From Candidatus Poribacteria bacterium (GTDB lineage: Bacteria > Poribacteria > WGA-4E > PCPOR2b), in contig OZ242315.1 of assembly GCA_965207975.1 (NCBI GenBank), forward strand, positions 6,203,424 through 6,267,423: DNA of 64,000 nucleotides, read 5' to 3'. The position numbers were made by a program, and so were the translations under genes. Position 1 is the first letter of the stretch. Every line of letters begins with the position of its first letter. Of this stretch, positions 37,812 through 47,953 are shown piece by piece. The notes beneath the pieces are model-generated. The model was not told the DNA's origin. It searched no databases and saw only the letters and a list, made by a program, of their open reading frames with translations.

Positions 37812-40064
37812 ATGAAACCGTTTATGGAAACCTTGCCTCCCGAAGTGGATACTAAGCTGAAGCAGGTAAAACCGCCGGAGGAACAGGTACTTTTCCAAGT
37901 CTCCACAGATCTCATCAGCGACCAATTATTCGGGGAAAAATGGCTGGTAGCTACAGATCGGCACCTGCTGTTTATACCGGCTGGGGGTGTGGATGGCGTT
38001 GTGCAAGTACCACTTGCAGCTGTGCAGGAGGCAAAAACAGAGGAGCTCGTCGGGGGAGGACGGCTGGCGGTAGAACGTAAGGAAGAGGGACCTGTTTATC
38101 TACACTACTCCAGTTCATTGGCACCCAAGTTTGCTGAGGTCGCCGAGGGAATTCAGCAGCTCTCCACAGGGGAAACTCTTGAGCTGCCGACGGAGATGGA
38201 GCGCACACGGTGTGAAAAGTGTGGATGCCTACTTGCAGAAAAAGATGGCAGATGTATTAACTGTACGAAGAAGCGGGATACGCTCCGGCGGATTCTTAGC
38301 TACGTTAGGCCTTATCGCCTTCAACTGGTACTTGTTTTTGTCATTACGACGGTTGCCGCACTAGTCGAGTTACTGCCTCCCCTTATCACGGAACGCATTA
38401 TTGACGATGTTCTCACGCCGAAATCAAACTTGGGACTTTTGGGGTGGCTTGTATTGGCACTTTTGGGGATTCGTTTATTGATGTGGTTTTCTCAAGTGGG
38501 TCGTACAGCAATAAGTAGTTGGCTCGGATTTCGAGCAGCAGAAGACATCCGCGCTGAACTCTACCGGGTGCTACAGTTTACACCTTTGAGATTTTACGAT
38601 AAGCGAAAGGTCGGATCTCTCATCTCCCGGATGACTAACGACGCAGAACTTCTGGAGGAATACCTAATCTATGACCTACCTTTCATCCTGTCGAATATAT
38701 TGTTGTTATTTGGCATCTTGACGTTGTTGTTATATAAAAGCTGGCTGCTCACGATATATGTGTTGCTTCCTGTACCGCTGATTGTCTTGGGTGGGGCATT
38801 AATCTGGAATCGTATGGAACGTTACTGGCGTCGTTGGTCTGTTAAGTGGGGACGGTTTTCAGCCCATTTGAACGAATCAATCACCGGCATCCGATTGGTC
38901 AAAGCCTTTGCCCAAGAAAAACGCGAAGGTATTCGTTTTAGTCAGCGGAATGACGAACTGCGGCAGGTGAGTGTTAGCGCGGATCGGGCTTGGTTCGTCT
39001 TCTTTACTGTGATGAATTTTTTGATGAGTTTTGGCGTGTTCTTTGTTTGGTACTTTGGCGGACGACAAATCCTCGGGGGAGAATTAACGCTTGGAGAATT
39101 GACGGCATTTATCAGTTACCTCTGGATGCTCTACCGTCCTCTCAGATGGCTTGGTGACTTCTACAACTTTATGATCCGTGCCTATGCGGGTGCAGAGCGA
39201 ATTTTTGAGGTCATGGACACGCCTGTTGAGCCGTTTAACTCCCCGGACGCGAAACCAATGCCTCAAATTGGGGGACGGGTATCCTTCAAAGATGTTACCT
39301 TTGGTTACGATCCGGGTAAACCTGTTCTCAAAGGAATTAATCTCGAAGTGGCACCCGGTGAAATGATCGGCTTGGTGGGCAAATCGGGAGTTGGCAAAAG
39401 CACTTTCATCAACCTCATCTGCCGATTTTACGATGTCAATCGCGGACGTTTAGATGTTGACAGCGAGGATATTCGAGACATCCGTCTTGAAGATTTGCGT
39501 GGGCAGATAGGAATGGTCCATCAGGAACCGACGTTATTTAATGTTACAATTGCTGAAAACATCCGCTACGGTAAACCGGATGCAACGTTTGCTGAGGTGA
39601 TTCGCGCGGCGATAGCAGCGGAAGCGCATGAATTTATCGTTGCCAAACCGGACGGTTATGACACAAAGGCTGGCGAACGCGGTGGAAAGCTCTCCGGCGG
39701 CGAAAAGCAGCGCATTGCAATCGCACGCGCCATCCTGCATGACCCCAAAATTCTTATCCTTGATGAGGCGACCTCCTCGCTTGATACACCGACTGAGAAG
39801 AAGATTCAGATAGCGATTGCGCGACTGGTTAAAGGACGAACCACCTTTGCGATTGCCCACCGGCTCTCAACCCTGCGAAATGCGGACCGACTGGTTGTCT
39901 TGGACGATGGCAAAATTGCTGAGGTTGGCACCCATGCGGAGTTGATAGGGCAGAAAGGCATTTTCTACAACCTTGTTCACACGCAGCAAACAACAACGGC
40001 AATTATGGCGGTCGGCGGTGGGAAAGAGGACTCGGAGGATGATTCGGAGGATGATGATGAATAG
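37812..40064 (+). CDS. ABC transporter, fused permease/ATPase with N-terminal extension and CxxC-CxxC motif
   Basis: GKSGVGKS, LSGGEKQR, ILILDEATS; CEKC...CINC. Confidence 0.93.
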   Translation: MKPFMETLPPEVDTKLKQVKPPEEQVLFQVSTDLISDQLFGEKWLVATDRHLLFIPAGGVDGVVQVPLAAVQEAKTEELVGGGRLAVERKEEGPVYLHYSSSLAPKFAEVAEGIQQLSTGETLELPTEMERTRCEKCGCLLAEKDGRCINCTKKRDTLRRILSYVRPYRLQLVLVFVITTVAALVELLPPLITERIIDDVLTPKSNLGLLGWLVLALLGIRLLMWFSQVGRTAISSWLGFRAAEDIRAELYRVLQFTPLRFYDKRKVGSLISRMTNDAELLEEYLIYDLPFILSNILLLFGILTLLLYKSWLLTIYVLLPVPLIVLGGALIWNRMERYWRRWSVKWGRFSAHLNESITGIRLVKAFAQEKREGIRFSQRNDELRQVSVSADRAWFVFFTVMNFLMSFGVFFVWYFGGRQILGGELTLGELTAFISYLWMLYRPLRWLGDFYNFMIRAYAGAERIFEVMDTPVEPFNSPDAKPMPQIGGRVSFKDVTFGYDPGKPVLKGINLEVAPGEMIGLVGKSGVGKSTFINLICRFYDVNRGRLDVDSEDIRDIRLEDLRGQIGMVHQEPTLFNVTIAENIRYGKPDATFAEVIRAAIAAEAHEFIVAKPDGYDTKAGERGGKLSGGEKQRIAIARAILHDPKILILDEATSSLDTPTEKKIQIAIARLVKGRTTFAIAHRLSTLRNADRLVVLDDGKIAEVGTHAELIGQKGIFYNLVHTQQTTTAIMAVGGGKEDSEDDSEDDDE

Positions 40065-40114: not shown

Positions 40115-40241
40115 GTGAACTCTTACTTCCCTACCGGAGCACACTAAAATGGATAACATCACCTATCGCACAATTTTTGACGACTCACTGAGTGATAGAT
40201 ATATTTGGATAACAACTTAGGTGACTACACTGGAGAATGTA

Positions 40242-40814
40242 ATGGCATCTGAATCGGAAAAAATTGAAACACCCACGGAGAGTGGAAAAGCAAAAACGGA
40301 GAGGACAATCACTCCCATTCAGGTAACCCATCCGGAACATGTTGAGCCTGAAACGATCCGCCTATTCCGGGAACCGCCGTGGGTATTGCGGTTGACTATT
40401 AAGGGCGATCGTTCCTACCTCAAGGTTCGAGTGGTGTGTGCTGCCCCATTATCTCAACCCGATCGATACATCTGCTTTCTTGACGAAAAGAATGAGGTAA
40501 TCTGTACAGTCGAAGATCCGATTGATTTAGACGAGGTGTCTCAGCGGCTGATCAAAGAAGAGCTTGAGCAGCGATATATGACCGCTATTATCAAGCGGGT
40601 CGACTCGCTCAAGAGTGAGTTTGGTGTGTCCTATTGGGAGGTCCAGACTGACCGAGGGGACAGAGAGTTTGTCGTGCGGAATGTATCTGAGAACGCACAG
40701 TGGATTACAGATCGCCGGCTGCTGTTGCTTGATGTAGACGGCAATAGGTTCGAGATCTCCAACTTAGAGGTTCTTGATAAAAAGAGCCGCGGACTAATCG
40801 AAATGGTGTTATAG
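40242..40814 (+). CDS. DUF1854 family protein
   Basis: AAPLSQPDRYI, WEVQTDRG, DVDGNRFEI; follows ABC transporter. Confidence 0.8.
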   Translation: MASESEKIETPTESGKAKTERTITPIQVTHPEHVEPETIRLFREPPWVLRLTIKGDRSYLKVRVVCAAPLSQPDRYICFLDEKNEVICTVEDPIDLDEVSQRLIKEELEQRYMTAIIKRVDSLKSEFGVSYWEVQTDRGDREFVVRNVSENAQWITDRRLLLLDVDGNRFEISNLEVLDKKSRGLIEMVL

Positions 40815-41019: not shown

Positions 41020-42003
41020 ATGTCTGAAGAACGGAGGCATGACCTACACCACTTCATGCAGCAGCTGAGTACTGCAATGGATAAAAACTATGAATATCTT
41101 AAAACGCGGGTAGGCGAGGATCCAGGGACTACCGGAGACCAAGCAGAGATACATTGGGCTAAGTGGTTGAGTCGCTGGCTTCCGCCGACCTATAAAGTTG
41201 TCACTAAAGGGCGAATCATCAACCAAAATGGGGAAGCAAGTCCACAAGTTGATGTTTTAGTTCTAAAGAGTTTTTACCCGAAGGAGTTGCATACCAACAA
41301 ACATTATCTCTCTGCAGGTGTCGCTGCCGCGTTTGAATGCAAAACCACGCTAGAGGCACGGTATATTAAAGAGGCGACTCAAATCTGTGTAGAAATCAAA
41401 AACTTGTATCGAAATCGAAAAGAAACTCCCGACAAAGAAACTCCTTACAGGGAATTGCACACTCCCATTGTTTATGGGTTGTTAGCACACTCCCATATTT
41501 GGAAGGGCGAGGGGGCAACACCTGAAGATAATATCACACGAAATCTATCAGAGTCAGATGTTTCGTATGTTTCACACCCTCGCCTTGGGCTCGATTTTCT
41601 CTGTGTCGCGGATTGTGGCACATGGGTTTTGTCTAAGTTTCCGTTTAGTTATGGATCTCAATCGGTTCTGCCTCCAGAACTTCAAGATGGAGTAGATAGT
41701 GGACATCTTCCACATACTCCTTTTCTTGAACAAGAAACAGAGGATTTCACTCCTATTGGTTCTTTTTATGCTAATCTCATGGAACGACTCGCATGGGAAG
41801 ACCCAACATTGCGCGATATTGTTGATTACTTACGAGCCACAAAAATCGGTGGAGAGGGTGGCGGACAACTTCGTAGATGGACTTTTGACATACTCAGTGA
41901 TGCTGTTCAAAAACAGATAAGAGAAGGTCGCAGACTATCAAACGACCCTTTGAGTTGGGATGAATGGAAAAATAATTTCGGCATTCGTATGCAGGTCCAT
42001 TAA
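41020..42003 (+). CDS. DUF6602-like protein, putative PD-(D/E)XK nuclease fold
   Basis: GDQAE..W..WLP, SPQVDVLV, AAFECKTTL; GAGGAGG RBS. Confidence 0.7.
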   Translation: MSEERRHDLHHFMQQLSTAMDKNYEYLKTRVGEDPGTTGDQAEIHWAKWLSRWLPPTYKVVTKGRIINQNGEASPQVDVLVLKSFYPKELHTNKHYLSAGVAAAFECKTTLEARYIKEATQICVEIKNLYRNRKETPDKETPYRELHTPIVYGLLAHSHIWKGEGATPEDNITRNLSESDVSYVSHPRLGLDFLCVADCGTWVLSKFPFSYGSQSVLPPELQDGVDSGHLPHTPFLEQETEDFTPIGSFYANLMERLAWEDPTLRDIVDYLRATKIGGEGGGQLRRWTFDILSDAVQKQIREGRRLSNDPLSWDEWKNNFGIRMQVH

Positions 42004-43086
42004 AAGGGGTGAAAATATCCGGTAATTATCCACACATATTATTACGGTATGAAATGTTTATAAGCCCCGCCCCTATTACTCGGAATAAAATAAAGAATCA
42101 ATCCCACCACAAGCCCCAAGTATCAGATGTTCATAGATACCACCTATATTTGCAATAAAACCAAGAAATGCTTCAGCGGTGATTGGGGAAACAACTGTAT
42201 ACCTTCCATATCTTGATTTATGCTTAGCACCCTAACTCCTTTTATGGGTTACAAACCGAGCAGGGGGAATACGATTTTTCAGCCACTTCTAGTGTGAGGG
42301 GTTTTTTGCCTCCCCTCAAATGTTTGCAACCATCGCGATGATATTTCAATCCTCTTTCCGTAACATAAACAGGCGCAAAAGGCCAATTGACTGTACCTCT
42401 TTCTTTGCGTGCCTTGAAGGGATCTTTGACAATATGTTTCTTTTTTTCTTCCTCCACCTTCGATTTTTCATCTTCCCAGTTTTCAAGCCTTTTCTTAGTG
42501 TATTCTACATACTCAGATGAAATGTCCATGCCAATAAAGTGATGACCAAGAATCTTTGCTGCGACTAGAGTTGTTCCCGTACCACAGAACGGATCAAGTA
42601 TGATCTTTTTAGAATCGCCGGGCATAGAGTAAATAGCACGCACAGGTAATTCAATAGGAAATGGAGACGGATGCCAATCAGTTCTTTTAACAGGCTTGAT
42701 CCTCCAAATAGATGAAATTTTAGCGTGCCGTGATTCTAATTCCTCACCAACTATGTGTTTTTTGATAGGACGATACAACCAATAAATCCGTTCATCAACC
42801 TGAAAGAATCTCCAACCTCGGAGATTACTTGCTAATAGACGATCCCATATTATCTCCTGACGCAAAGCCCAATCTGATTCTGATACCCAGGTGTAAGGGT
42901 GTATCAATTTACCCTTGTCCCATCGAATTTTGTGATTATAAAAAAGTGAACCTCCCGGTTTTGTCACCCGAAATAATTCGTTTAACACATTAATCTGCCA
43001 AGCTTGATAATCTTCCTCCTGCATATAGTCATCGAAGTCGGTATAGGTGTACTGCCCGCGTTAATTAGGGCCATAAATCGCCAAAT

Positions 43087-43935
43087 TTAAGCCAAGAGTT
43101 GTTGTTCAAATTCAACGGGCGTTAAATAGCCTAACGCTGAATGAGGTCTCTTGTGATTATACACTTGTAAAATAAAATGCTCAATTCTGGTTCTTGCGTC
43201 GATAATATCATCGTATTCATTGAGATGGACCTCTTCCTCTTTGAGGGTTCGTATGAGTCTTTCGGCATAGCCATTGTCCCAAGGTCGTCCTCTATGGGCT
43301 AAAGAAATCTTAATCCCATGGCTGATGAGCGTCGACACATAAGCCGTCGAAAGGTACTGAACCCCTTGGTCGCTATGGTGAATCTCCGGAACACTTTGGG
43401 TTAATGCGTGTTGCAAGGGTCTCAAGGTGAGCGGTTGTGTCAAGTTTAGGCTCACCTGCCAGCCTCTGACCATTCGCGTGAATACATCCATTAACACCGA
43501 CACATAGATGAATTGTCCCTTGAGTCGAACATAGGTAATATCACCGACCCACACCTGATTGCGTCGACAGATGTCAAGGTTCTCAATTCGATTCACCCAT
43601 TGACCTAACCCCGCAACCGATTGGGTGGTTTGGCACGCACGGTTGATGGGGATTGAAAGATTTTGCTCTTGCATCAATCGGGCGATCCGGGTGGTGCCAA
43701 CGTCATATCCCATACGCTTCAGCAACTGGGTGATACGTCTATAGCCGTATGTAGGATACCGGGCAGACAGTTTCTCTATCTCATCTCGTAACTGTTGTTC
43801 AGAAGGGTCTGTTTTCGGTTGATAATAGAGACTGCTCCGATTGAAACCGAGAACCTCACAAATCTGTCGAACCGAGTAATCGGTCTGCAACGCCTGAACT
43901 ATCTGTTGTTTTTGTGACCGATTCAACTGAGCCAC
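43087..43935 (-). CDS. IS3 transposase OrfB (integrase core)
   Basis: YGYRRI, WVGDITY, HHSDQG, NGYAER, YNHKRPHSALG. Confidence 0.93.
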   Translation of the reverse strand: MAQLNRSQKQQIVQALQTDYSVRQICEVLGFNRSSLYYQPKTDPSEQQLRDEIEKLSARYPTYGYRRITQLLKRMGYDVGTTRIARLMQEQNLSIPINRACQTTQSVAGLGQWVNRIENLDICRRNQVWVGDITYVRLKGQFIYVSVLMDVFTRMVRGWQVSLNLTQPLTLRPLQHALTQSVPEIHHSDQGVQYLSTAYVSTLISHGIKISLAHRGRPWDNGYAERLIRTLKEEEVHLNEYDDIIDARTRIEHFILQVYNHKRPHSALGYLTPVEFEQQLLA

Positions 43936-44207
43936 GTCGAGGCTTTTTTTTGGATGTCTAACGCTATAGTCAACCGTCCGACCAGCTGTTCCAGTTGAGC
44001 AATCTGTTCGTTATGGTCATTAGATTGCTTGTCAGTCGATTCAAACAAACTCGCCGCGTTGTCAACCAACTGGTGTTTCCACTTCGACAGTTGGTCTGCA
44101 CTGAGGTTGTGTTTGCGACACAACTCGGCTTGAGAACTTTGACCGCTCAGTGCCTCAATGACCACTTCTGCCTTAAATTGGGGCGTGAATCTTCTACGTT
44201 TTGCCAT
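43923..44207 (-). CDS. IS3 transposase OrfA; AAAAAAG slippery site near 43943-43951
   Basis: RRFTPQFKAEVV HTH; overlaps OrfB. Confidence 0.92.
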   Translation of the reverse strand: MAKRRRFTPQFKAEVVIEALSGQSSQAELCRKHNLSADQLSKWKHQLVDNAASLFESTDKQSNDHNEQIAQLEQLVGRLTIALDIQKKASTWLS

Positions 44208-45485
44208 CGGAAAGCTCCTTTCGATTAGATTGATATTCTATCACAATCTTGGTTTAGACAGTGGCCCTAATTTCCGATGGCAGTACAAGGCATTGTTTGA
44301 AACGAGCCAACCATTTCTTTGTTTTCCTTTGTTGTAGGGAGGAGAAGTAACGGTTATATCAACAGAAAAATCAGGGAGTTTCTTTAATTCTGCCAGAACA
44401 TCTCCTGCAATAACTTCATTTAATGGTAATTTGTGAGTATTCATTCCTTTCAATACTTTCTGGTTTACTGAGTTTGATTGATTATTTTGTAAAACGAGTA
44501 AGTTCGTTTACTAATTTTCCCATTGAGACATTCACTAACACATCTTCGCCTTTTATAAGTATCGCATTATTCGTTTTACCAGACAGATACTTAATAGCGT
44601 CTCTGATTTCATCAGATGTAATATTATTAAAAGGATCATAACGGGACACTTCTACTCTTATCATTTCAATATTACGAGTTTTATCAATTATGCGTTTCTC
44701 AAGATCCCGGATAGATTTCAGAATTGTCTGATAAAGCAATTTGCTTTTTAAAGGTTGAGAAGCAATCTCCTCCAATCTTGTTGTGACATCATGTGGGCTA
44801 AAGTGATTAAGTACAATATCTAACAGATCTGTTGCATGGAATTGGCGTGATTCTGCATCTTCAACAAATTTTGCAAGTTGTTCCACTGTCCAACATGAGA
44901 TTTTCAACTGATTTGCTCGTTTTGCAGCCTCATTGTCTGGTCTAGTTTTGCCCGGGTAATCAGGTGCAACGAGTAAACAGCCATCGGCATTGTTTTCTAT
45001 CTTATGACTGTTTAAAGCTCCAAAACCAATCGAGACTAAGGATGGAACATCTGCAGAGGATTTCGCTTCAAGTATGATCTTTTTTTCGCCGCCTGGTTGA
45101 TTCAGCCTTGCCATACCATCAGGTTCACTAGAACGCCCCATGTGTGTTGCGTCAAAACCCAGCGCACGTACAGCGACAACAATCATATTTTCAAGATCTT
45201 TCGCGTTAGATGCGGCATCTCTCAGAAATTGAGCAATTGCTGGATTTGCATACGTTTCTGCTTTAATAAGTTTCCGCAAGAGAGCATCCCGTTTTTCCAG
45301 CACACTGCCAATGAGACGAGCCGGTATTTTTTTCTCTCTAAGATAAATCTCAAGCAGAGCTTCCGCGGTCGCAAAATCTTCAAGTAAGCGTTTTGAGTCT
45401 TGATTATTATCAATTGCGTATTCTAGGACAAGCTCATGGTCTAGGTTTAGCCAAAACGTTGAAGTTTGTGGATTGAATTTGACTA

Positions 45486-46351
45486 GGTAGTGTTTACATT
45501 TTTTTAGCAGTGATAAGTAAAGCTGCGAAATAGACGAATCCGAGGTATCGGTTTGCATATTTATCATATCGGGTGGCAACCCTGCGATACTGCTTCAACC
45601 GATGGAAAAAACGCTCTATAATGTTGCGACGTTTATACACCTCTTTATCATAAGGCCGATCCTCAACGCGGTTGTTGCGCGGCCTTATCACCGCCACCGC
45701 CCCTTGGGCAACAATCATTTCTCGCAGCGCATCGGCGTCATAAGCCGCATCGGCAACAATGTATTGGCACGTGTAGCCGGTAATCAATGCCGGGGCTTGT
45801 GTCACGTCATGACACGCACCCGCTGTCAAGGTAAAACGCAAAGGAACAAACGCATCATTCACCGCAGCATTGAGTTTCGTGGTAAAGCCGCCTCGGCTCC
45901 GACCGAGTGCTTCTGATTGCTGACCTCCGTTTTTTTTGGGGCACCCGCTGCAGCAGCATGTGCCCGCACAATCGTTGAATCAATGAGGAGTGCCGAGAAT
46001 GCACCCGCCTCATGGAAATGTTCATGGAGTTTTTCAAAGACCCCGGCATCGCACCATCTGCCGAAGCGTCTATAGATGGCATTCCAATATCCGTAAACTT
46101 TCGGCAACGACCGCCAAGTCGCCCCTTCTTTTGTTATCCAGATGAGTGCCGAAAGGAAACGTCTACAATCTTCAGGGGCCCCGACATAGACGTTTGGCAA
46201 TGTTTGCAAAAACGGGTGTATGCTCTGCCAAGCTGCATCACTAAGCATCACAGGAAAGTCTTGAGGGGCATCTATCTGTTGAGTTTTCATGCAAGACAGT
46301 TTACAAAGACTTACTTAAAATGTCAATAACTTACACAATGTAAACACAACC
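45486..46351 (-). mobile_element. IS5 family insertion sequence (IS427-like organisation)
   Basis: IRs ggtagtgtttacatt / aatgtaaacacaacc; inserted in CTAG with TA duplicated. Confidence 0.93.
45494..46290 (-). CDS. IS5 transposase (two ORFs joined by frameshift at the A8 run, 45930-45937)
   Basis: GATWRSLP, IDSTIVRAH, GRSRGGFTTK, ADAAYD, RNIIERFF, ATRYDK. Confidence 0.9.
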
Positions 46352-47953
46352 TAGTCTCTCAGTACGTCCATTCTCCCGGTATTCATAGCTGAGTTCTCGG
46401 CGAGAGTTGGTTGTATACAATGATTGTATCAATTCATTAAATTCACTAGTATCGGTATCAATTTGTTCAAGATAAAAAAAATCCTCATCTGCTTCAGTAC
46501 CTTGTGAATCCATTTTCTGACTAGATAAGACATTGGCAGTAGGATGCTCTATGTCGCGTGGAGCAAAGATTGTCCTCTTGCCTTCTTTGGGTTGCTTCTG
46601 TGAAGACTCGCGATCTCTCTTCCACCTTGCAAACCTTGAATTGGCTTCATTGAAAATTTCCCTCAACAGTCTTTGAAAAGCAGATTTTGTAGGCGAGTGC
46701 TCAACTGTTTCGCGTGATACCTTTAGACCTTCATCTAAGTCGTCAGCTTGAATTTCTGCTCGCATACGATTGGTAATTTCGTAGGTCATTGGAGATACAC
46801 CGAAAAGCGGGTCCTCTTCGTTAATAAGTCTTCCGCGAACACGAATAAAGAACCCGTGACTTCTGGCAAGCTGGTCGCTCTTACCTCCATAAATAGTTTT
46901 CTCGGTAATTTTTACCGTGCCAGTTATCCCCGATATAAAGGAATTTGATTTAAGACTGTCACCTTCGACAAAAAAACATTCGCCCGTATCTTCTTGTATG
47001 GATTCGATTCGTTCCTTCGGTAGATCTTTCAGATCAAACATTACGATTGCTTCACGATCTTCTTTGGAACTTTGTATCTCCTGTCCATTCAAATAAAGGT
47101 GGAAAGAAGTACCTAGCGGCATTGCCGTACTAAGTACCCACTGTAGCCTCTTGCTTGTTATCTTTCGAGCTTTGTCCTTCAAATCTTCCAAAATTGCAAT
47201 TGTCCATGATTTACTCTTAAAGAGTGTTTCTGGATTGAGATTAATTTTCTGTAAAATTTCTGGCATGTATAAATCATTGAAAAATTTATCCCAATCATTG
47301 ATGTCTCGAACAGGTAAATTAATAGAATAATTTTCTCTTGTAGACGGAGATGAAAAATCTCTGAAATCCATTGTTACTGCAAGAATCTCGTCTTGCCGAC
47401 TCCGGCTTATGTAAGTTAATCGGTTTGCAAGTGCATAAGCAGCAAGTTTCCCTATACCGAATTTACCAATCTGCTTGTGTTTCCGCTTTGATTGAATCTC
47501 CTGCGTTCTTTTATTGCTTTGACCAATTTTCCATAAGTCAACTAAATCACTACGATTCATACCCACTCCATCATCAAATACTAGTGCAAAGTTCTGGTCA
47601 GAATGACTAGGTAGTGGGACATACACTCGACACTCTGATGCGTCAGCATCATAAGCATTAACAACTAGTTCTTCTATTGCTTTAATAGGTGATTGATATA
47701 ACTCTTCTGATACTAGGTTAAGCAGTTCATACGAAGTTGACACTTGGATGCGTTTATCCAATTCATCGAAACTATCAATTGCGTTTGCAATCAGAATTGA
47801 TGATTGATTCATATTTTTCCCCAATCTAAGAAAAAGGCTAATGTGGCGGTCGCGTCTCTGCCTGATAGATCGTCCTTCCGTTGAGGTTCAGTAGATTGTG
47901 TAGATTTTGCTAGACGCTAAACAACGGATTATTCTCAAAATAATCTTCCTACC

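Follow-up and report, generated by a model that had tools for sequence, protein, structure and literature searches.

The locus described here lies in a 64,000-nt stretch of DNA from a Candidatus Poribacteria bacterium (assembly GCA_965207975.1, contig OZ242315.1, positions 6,203,424 to 6,267,423 of the forward strand), which we refer to as the window, and probably represents a two-gene, Type II-like restriction-modification (R-M) module that is now inactive. Two minus-strand genes at 42242-47824, encoding an ATPase-nuclease and a beta-class DNA methyltransferase, each contain one insertion sequence (IS), so that four open reading frame (ORF) pieces are interleaved with two sets of transposase genes. 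The locus is a pseudogenised R-M copy with both core genes IS-split, and its parts, in the direction of transcription, are as follows:

46351..47824, minus strand: N-terminal piece of the GHKL ATPase-nuclease gene, 491 codons, with a TTG start at 47824 and an ATG at 47812, encoding the GHKL and S5-like ATPase module.
45487..46350, minus strand: IS5-family insertion sequence of 864 bp, which splits the ATPase-nuclease gene; transposase in two frames (143 + 122 aa).
44482..45486, minus strand: C-terminal piece of the ATPase-nuclease gene, 334 codons, encoding a helical linker, a PD-ExK nuclease and a winged helix; stop codon at 44482-44484.
44288..44453, minus strand: N-terminal piece of the beta-class DNA methyltransferase gene, with a TTG at 44453 and an ATG at 44444, encoding motif IV SPPY.
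43048..44287, minus strand: IS3-family insertion sequence of 1240 bp, which splits the methyltransferase gene; orfA at 43923-44207 and orfB at 43087-43935.
42242..43047, minus strand: C-terminal piece of the methyltransferase gene, encoding the motifs through FxGxG (DPFCGTGTT) and matching PF01555 N6_N4_Mtase at 5.4e-28.

Both inserted elements possess a transposase, terminal inverted repeats, a target duplication and further copies in the genome. The IS5-type element ends in 14-nt inverted repeats and is flanked on either side by a CTAG duplication, one copy of which (46351-46354) forms the last 4 bases of the N-terminal piece of the ATPase-nuclease gene. Its transposase matched DUF4096 (8.7e-21) and DDE_Tnp_1 (3.6e-13) in Pfam, and the genome contains one further identical copy and another that is 94% identical. 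The IS3-type element has TG..CA ends, 26-nt inverted arms and a CCT duplication flanking either side; its genes matched HTH_Tnp_1 and rve in Pfam, and its copies in the genome, among the matches listed, comprise 5 at 100%, 1 at 88% and fragments. Both IS are live repeat families of the source genome. When each IS together with one copy of its duplication was excised by coordinates with a script, single open frames of 824 aa and 322 aa were obtained. The reconstructed ATPase-nuclease has 824 aa from the TTG and 820 aa from the ATG at 47812, and the ATG of the 322-aa methyltransferase lies 37 nt past the ATPase-nuclease stop. An earlier examination of this DNA, made from the letters alone (the original prediction), had proposed the same excision of two IS with the same outcome, and the ORFs and the GHKL, PD..EAK and QVD..ECK motifs that it listed were found where it had placed them.

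All four gene/IS junctions were covered by short-read contigs of runs X1/X2, which are probably from the source sample, reaching ~29 nt into the IS end. Given these junction contigs and the identical copies elsewhere in the genome, both insertions are real and recent. No X1/X2 contig bridged an IS-free allele, a check that a minority intact allele could escape because assembled contigs lose rare variants. In runs X5/X6, which had small word shares, there was IS-like sequence only and the genes were absent; these runs give no information on habitat.

The original prediction had also suggested looking for intact homologous loci, and one was found in the same genome. An intact sister pair located 2 Mb away, with its ATPase-nuclease gene at G000 C1:4189976-4192429, encodes an 818-aa ATPase-nuclease and a 283-aa methyltransferase in the same order with a 38-nt gap. 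The sister ATPase-nuclease is 72% identical to the window copy over the N-terminal piece and ~68% identical over the full length, and the sister methyltransferase is 77-78% identical to the reconstructed one. The sister pair sits amid metabolic genes and may carry the same specificity as the window copy. Beyond this genome, over 1,250 relatives of the N-terminal piece were found, almost all of them 810-860 aa in length, and the ATPase-nuclease family comprises 538 clusters at 50% identity (E up to 1e-30). A family scan with one genome per species yielded 80 loci from many phyla, in which 373 neighbouring ORFs (at least 110 aa, within 2.6 kb) were recorded and 117 of them (at least 180 aa, within 500 nt) were compared with Pfam. 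A DNA methyltransferase was adjacent, that is, within 500 nt, in 63 of the 80 loci (62 with PF01555 and 1 with PF00145), often overlapping the ATPase-nuclease gene or tens of bases away and usually on the same strand. No full-length homologue was detected in 72,556 plasmid records, where one match had 28% coverage, or in 50,697 phage records.

The methylases linked to this family are of at least three kinds: ~290-aa beta-class enzymes encoded directly downstream, enzymes of ~390-640 aa whose N-terminus matches the C-terminal motif of the profile and whose genes lie upstream, downstream or in convergent orientation, and a single C5 enzyme. When 74 full-length proteins (rows below 700 aa excluded) were placed in a phylogeny with FastTree, the enzymes linked to beta-class methylases formed a single clade of 13 with a Shimodaira-Hasegawa (SH)-like support of 99 and with members in Poribacteria, Chloroflexota, Deinococcota, Bacteroidota, Acidobacteriota and Atribacterota, and the window copy and its sister were nearest kin with a support of 100. 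The in-frame restoration, the sister pair, the linkage in 63 of 80 loci and the 13-member clade therefore indicate that the two genes form a conserved R-M-like pair, as the original prediction had supposed. Moreover, the partner methylase varies by family while the restriction (R) and modification (M) genes stay adjacent, which suggests that the nuclease recognises DNA itself in a Type II-like manner and does not depend on the methylase for recognition, unlike the enzymes of Types I and III.

Other neighbourhoods occur in parts of the family. In a distant Bacteroidota subclade (L067:8449-10665, L072:3269-5485 and L074:8449-10665), a 739-aa protein is encoded 3' of the ATPase-nuclease, with HATPase_c_3 in its N-terminal and a histidine-kinase-type HATPase_c in its C-terminal part; it resembles the paraMORC-related histidine-kinase-like genes as outlined in PMC8011034. 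In L068 and L087, a Z1/ResIII helicase stands in place of the 739-aa protein. Two small clades, one of L038, L039, L041 and L046 and the other of L012-L014, lack an adjacent methyltransferase; a DUF4928 gene lies upstream in L012, and a XamI-type restriction endonuclease gene lies downstream in L077.

As judged from profiles and structure models, the ATPase-nuclease appears to consist of a MORC/Hsp90-type GHKL and S5-like module, a helical linker, a FokI/HindIII-like PD-ExK nuclease and a winged helix. Its N-terminal half matched PF13589 HATPase_c_3 (7.5e-19), and PADLOC REase_II models matched the protein at 3.5e-10. In the reconstruction, the GHKL motifs (N56, D84-G86-G88 and K121/G123/G125) and the nuclease motif PD..EAK (D613, E630 and K632), together with E589, are intact, with the nuclease domain at reconstructed residues ~570-730 and the winged helix at ~737-824. 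The E, D, G and K of E..PDG..(16)..ExK are invariant across 45 sequences with identity down to 21%, and the reconstructed protein retains 112 of the 116 columns that are invariant among 25 relatives. A model of the 334-residue C-terminal piece of the window copy, built on a 45-sequence alignment, reached a predicted local distance difference test score (pLDDT) of 87.8. Residues 80-240 of this model aligned with the FokI cleavage domain in VIA-align (Z 15.1, root-mean-square deviation 2.4 Å, 147 aligned residues), and likewise with HindIII (Z 14.8) and N.BspD6I (Z 14.3); Foldseek concurred (HindIII 4.6e-05, FokI 6.3e-05). Residues 247-334 form a winged helix that is ORC/Cdc6-like (Z ~10) and CAP-like, within a range of Z 8-10. 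Pfam FokI_cleav_dom matched the C-terminal piece weakly (0.0014), and a sequence search of solved structures with this piece matched none, so that fold comparison alone identified the nuclease. The shared fold covers ~150 residues with the same PDG..(16)..ExK spacing, but identity to FokI and HindIII is only ~14-17%, and FokI has no ATPase and recognises DNA through separate domains.

The full-length sister protein, modelled from an alignment of 25 sequences (pLDDT 76, predicted template modelling score 0.43), was similar to the ATPase modules of TRAP1/Hsp90 and MORC2/MORC3, with Foldseek E values of ~1e-12 to 1e-13 over ~440 residues. The GHKL and transducer fold is thus shared with these eukaryotic proteins at modest TM-scores (0.35-0.41 on target), whereas the CW, coiled-coil and client-binding domains are not present here and a nuclease is fused instead. 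Within the family, the sequence varies most in an insert at ~161-200, a linker at ~401-420 and the C-terminal winged helix. Judging by this variability, the insert in the ATPase domain and the winged helix are candidate specificity determinants.

The methyltransferase is of the beta class, with SPPY near its N-terminus and FxGxG (DPFCGTGTT) near its C-terminus, that is, motif IV before motif I, and its N-terminal piece matched PADLOC MTase_II at 9.8e-09. The nearest solved relative of the sister methyltransferase is the rotifer cytosine-N4 enzyme N4CMT (8s9n, 1.5e-44, ~40% identity as counted in the printed alignment), whose structure is described in PMC10406627, and SPPY is common to most bacterial N4C enzymes (PMC8885841). 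Because of these two likenesses, the methyltransferase is most likely a cytosine-N4 enzyme, the methylated base being predicted. The N4CMT of bdelloid rotifers is considered to have come from bacteria (PMC10406627, PMC8885841). The methylase partner in the clade of the window copy and its sister (L007:7084-7935; window 42242-44453) shows the ~40% identity to N4CMT given above, and this R-M clade would therefore be among the close bacterial relatives of N4CMT. The metal finger that the original prediction ascribed to the methyltransferase corresponds to a real C-x-H...C-x-x-C tail of ~40 residues (~42245-42370), but the tail is peculiar to this copy, being present in 0 of 12 orthologous methyltransferases; its one weak match was DUF6233 at 0.0055.

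In a working module, the methyltransferase would mark the host's own sites and the ~820-aa partner would be the restriction enzyme, with a predicted role against phages. FokI-type domains cut duplex DNA as dimers only, and GHKL modules, such as those of MutL, Hsp90 and MORC, dimerise upon ATP binding. Therefore, an ATP-gated pairing of cleavage domains on captured DNA is the most economical model. Two protomers would bind unmethylated DNA, ATP binding would then shut the GHKL gate at the N-terminus, as it does in MORC, MutL and Hsp90, and closure would unite the two FokI-like cleavage domains and so license double-strand cutting; the variable winged helix and the ATPase-domain insert may supply specificity. 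A similar gating idea was proposed for paraMORCs by Iyer et al. (PMC2292703) and for Tiamat (preprint 10.64898/2026.09.30.754977). We tentatively raise the possibility, which we consider somewhat doubtful, that these proteins constitute a distinct class of restriction enzyme in which a one-chain, MORC/Hsp90-type ATP gate clamps unmethylated DNA before two FokI-like domains pair and cut, and in which the cytosine-N4 methylase partner would come from the bacterial group nearest to the rotifer N4CMT. If true, this would be the simplest living model of a MORC-type clamp that couples DNA capture to an effector, and ATP-gated intact relatives would offer both a small, tractable bacterial MORC-clamp model and an ATP-dependent Type II variant. 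The interest of the family would rise if ATP gating were demonstrated; the present locus chiefly serves to illustrate the loss of an R-M system through IS insertion while a sister system persists.

The window locus adds a new member, inactivated by IS elements, to a kind of enzyme known by computation since 2008. In that year, Iyer, Abhiman & Aravind described paraMORC3 as GHKL plus S5 plus a restriction endonuclease (RE) fold with a predicted R-M role (PMC2292703), and Orlowski & Bujnicki reported five REBASE subfamilies with an N-terminal GHKL domain, among which R.VeiORF1182P has a PD-(D/E)XK C-terminus (PMC2441816). The window protein has the same architecture, namely a GHKL and S5 module at the N-terminus and an RE-fold domain bearing E-D-ExK at the C-terminus, a likeness to paraMORC3 and R.VeiORF1182P that is drawn from their published descriptions. 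The nuclease-bearing subset of paraMORC3 is described as mostly stand-alone and from proteobacteria and bacteroidetes (PMC2292703); in contrast, most loci of the ~820-aa family (63 of 80) are methylase-linked, and the family occurs in many other phyla. Homology also extends to R.HgiDII/R.BbrUII (NF050001), which are restriction enzymes partnered with a methylase, as the present protein is predicted to be. The ATPase half matched this family at 3.6e-23 over profile positions 10-370 of 659, whereas the C-terminal halves do not match; here the C-terminal half is FokI/HindIII-like, and the HgiDII C-terminal domain had no fold assigned in 2008 according to PMC2441816. With R.HgiDII/R.BbrUII, R.VeiORF1182P (PMC2441816) and paraMORC3 (PMC2292703) all known as GHKL-fused Type II enzymes, the claim of the original prediction that the system lies outside the classic layouts was overstated.

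Tiamat (TmtA) likewise has an Hsp90-like N-terminal ATPase and a C-terminal PD-(D/E)xK nuclease; a clamp-like dimer has been proposed for it, and its ATPase site is required for defence (10.64898/2026.09.30.754977). It differs in being much larger (a 1486-position PADLOC profile) and in having TPR-like middle domains and a DUF3883/NOV_C nuclease. It is described as stand-alone, yet also occurs near helicases, nucleases and methyltransferases, according to the same preprint. The window protein matched TmtA in PADLOC at 2e-05 over residues 39-137 only, and neither DUF3684 nor DUF3883/NOV_C was found in it by Pfam. Our search of the literature outside subscription journals found no biochemistry of a GHKL plus PD-ExK restriction enzyme of this size. 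The few labelled relatives are named 'hypothetical protein' or 'ATP-binding protein' or after their HATPase domain, so that defence catalogues may undercount the family. The locus is hidden from standard annotation, as had been claimed, but this concealment through split genes applies only here, and the labelled intact relatives merely carry such generic names.

Several observations weigh against the interpretation as a conserved, Type II-like R-M module. The window copy deviates at 4 of the 116 invariant columns (R-to-H116, D-to-Q318, E-to-K814 and R-to-E818) and may therefore already have been decaying or diverging. The score against NF050001 is 82 bits where the cut-off is 550 and concerns the ATPase half only. 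The full-length sister model is mediocre and uninformative on dimers, and ATP dependence, sequence specificity and protection are what we infer throughout the ~820-aa family. Furthermore, 17 of the 80 loci (L012, L013, L014, L026, L027, L036, L038, L039, L041, L046, L052, L061, L065, L066, L070, L077 and L082) lack a methyltransferase next to the ATPase-nuclease gene. For about 11, short or cut contigs, broken genes or an intervening IS offer an explanation; in L013 and L052, an IS lies in between and a weak methylase-like BLAST match follows further on. The remaining L012, L036, L038, L041, L061 and L077 appear to be truly unlinked to a methylase, and some family members may therefore function without a linked one.

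The locus forms part of a larger insertion, which also holds a third gene. This gene and the two upstream of the insertion are:

41020..42003, plus strand: intact gene for a 327-aa DUF6602/NucC-like PD-(D/E)xK nuclease, convergent with the methyltransferase gene and in the same island.
40221-40814: DUF1854 gene upstream of the island, matching the NCBIfam cyanophycin metabolism-associated family under its cut-off.
37812-40064: ABC transporter ATPase/permease gene upstream of the island, kept in 19 of 19 congeners.

The cargo genes have guanine-cytosine (GC) contents of 0.36-0.44 against 0.49 for the window, in agreement with the AT-rich block noted in the original prediction. None of the 19 congeners carries a GHKL homologue (E up to 1e-20), and the upstream ABC-transporter/DUF1854 flank is present in all of them. 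The distance from the DUF1854 gene to the gene for a 981-aa oxidase is 77-1175 nt in 8 of 11 congener loci versus 7.5 kb in the window. The 7.5-kb low-GC segment is an inserted island. At its edges, no flanking direct repeats and no tRNA-like boundary were seen, and a promoter/terminator scan gave counts near the shuffled expectation. The module would have arrived with or beside the DUF6602 gene in this low-GC island between two genes, and would later have been knocked out by the IS5-type insertion in R and the IS3-type insertion in M.

Three other explanations were considered. The original prediction counted the DUF6602 gene as a component, and a three-gene system in which this nuclease acts with the ATPase-nuclease and the methyltransferase would account for the presence of all three genes inside one low-GC inserted island, as well as for the repeated occurrence of DUF6602 genes beside R-M genes (1.7 kb from a CfrBI-like pair for the second copy in this genome, and in 12 of 20 contexts). 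It is very improbable and largely refuted by non-co-occurrence, because no DUF6602 homologue was detected within 6 kb in any of the 80 GHKL loci (blastp, 1e-5), none of the 117 adjacent ORFs matched PF20247 in Pfam, there is no DUF6602 gene near the intact sister pair, and in relatives DUF6602 belongs to a different, Type III-like operon. DUF6602 was accordingly rejected as a component of the module.

It is also unlikely that the ATPase-nuclease is a self-sufficient, Tiamat-like defence protein that responds to infection and not to methylation, with the methyltransferase as a mere frequent island neighbour. Tiamat, with its GHL ATPase and C-terminal PD-(D/E)xK nuclease, defends alone (10.64898/2026.09.30.754977), and the weak TmtA match and the family members without a linked methylase are consistent with such a role. 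However, the TmtA match is limited to the GHKL region, the Tiamat domains DUF3684 and DUF3883 were missing in the Pfam search, 63 of 80 loci have the methylase gene directly next to the nuclease gene, often overlapping or within tens of bases and usually on the same strand, and R and M co-diversify as a clade. It is also very improbable that the protein cuts modified DNA in a Type IV-like manner, or serves as a MutL-like repair factor, and only happens to stand beside a methylase. The GHKL and S5 module is common to MutL (NCBIfam MutL ~1e-05), and the nuclease domains of AspBHI and MspJI were among the weaker fold matches (Z ~8). Nevertheless, a Type IV enzyme with its own linked methylase would be self-destructive, neither Pfam nor fold comparison detected a methyl-reader domain such as SRA, and the family differs from a repair gene in its patchy distribution and horizontal movement, with no homologue in the 19 congeners. 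The evidence thus favours the two-gene, Type II-like R-M module.

The DUF6602 gene is a separate defence-island gene that favours R-M neighbourhoods and lies outside this module. It carries the QVD..ECK motif, matched PF20247 at 1.8e-23, and is NucC-like by its matches to the PADLOC NucC effector (1.2e-22) and PDB 6q1h (5.7e-10). The same genome contains a second DUF6602 gene that is 62% identical. Its position is 1.7 kb downstream of a pair formed by a HEAT-repeat N6_N4 methylase and a CfrBI-like restriction enzyme, with a 290-aa family-less ORF between (region L090:2383-7452; G000 C1:3031382-3036451). DUF6602 homologues occur in 30 of 176 genomes of the phylum, several of them with internal stops. 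In 12 of 20 fetched contexts, a DNA methyltransferase is encoded no more than 4.2 kb away; the genomes are kin, and the context counts are therefore not independent. Pfam was run on 86 of the 119 neighbouring ORFs, the outermost being omitted, including L132:2-1531 with a weak methylase BLAST match.

In ~7-11 of the 12 contexts (L121-L137, for example L121:491-9811), a five-gene operon recurs in the order of a ~990-aa Type III-like methylase, a ~123-aa ORF, DUF6602, a ~385-aa unknown protein and a ~994-aa protein. The ~990-aa methylase matched PADLOC MTase_III at 2e-173, and the ~994-aa protein of L121, the one case run on NCBIfam, scored above the cut-off as a BPTD_3080-family restriction endonuclease (961 bits). 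Its layout resembles that of a Type III-like system that carries two extra, unexplained genes. In the source genome, where two cyclase families that could supply a NucC activator were searched, PF18144 (CD-NTase/SMODS) gave no match and Csm1 (TIGR02578) scored 24.9 bits against a cut-off of 170. The DUF6602 gene shares a homologous nuclease core with NucC, an effector of CBASS and Type III CRISPR, but it has ~150 extra C-terminal residues and in relatives is embedded in the Type III-like R-M operon. DUF6602 nucleases may act as accessory effectors accompanying R-M systems of several types.

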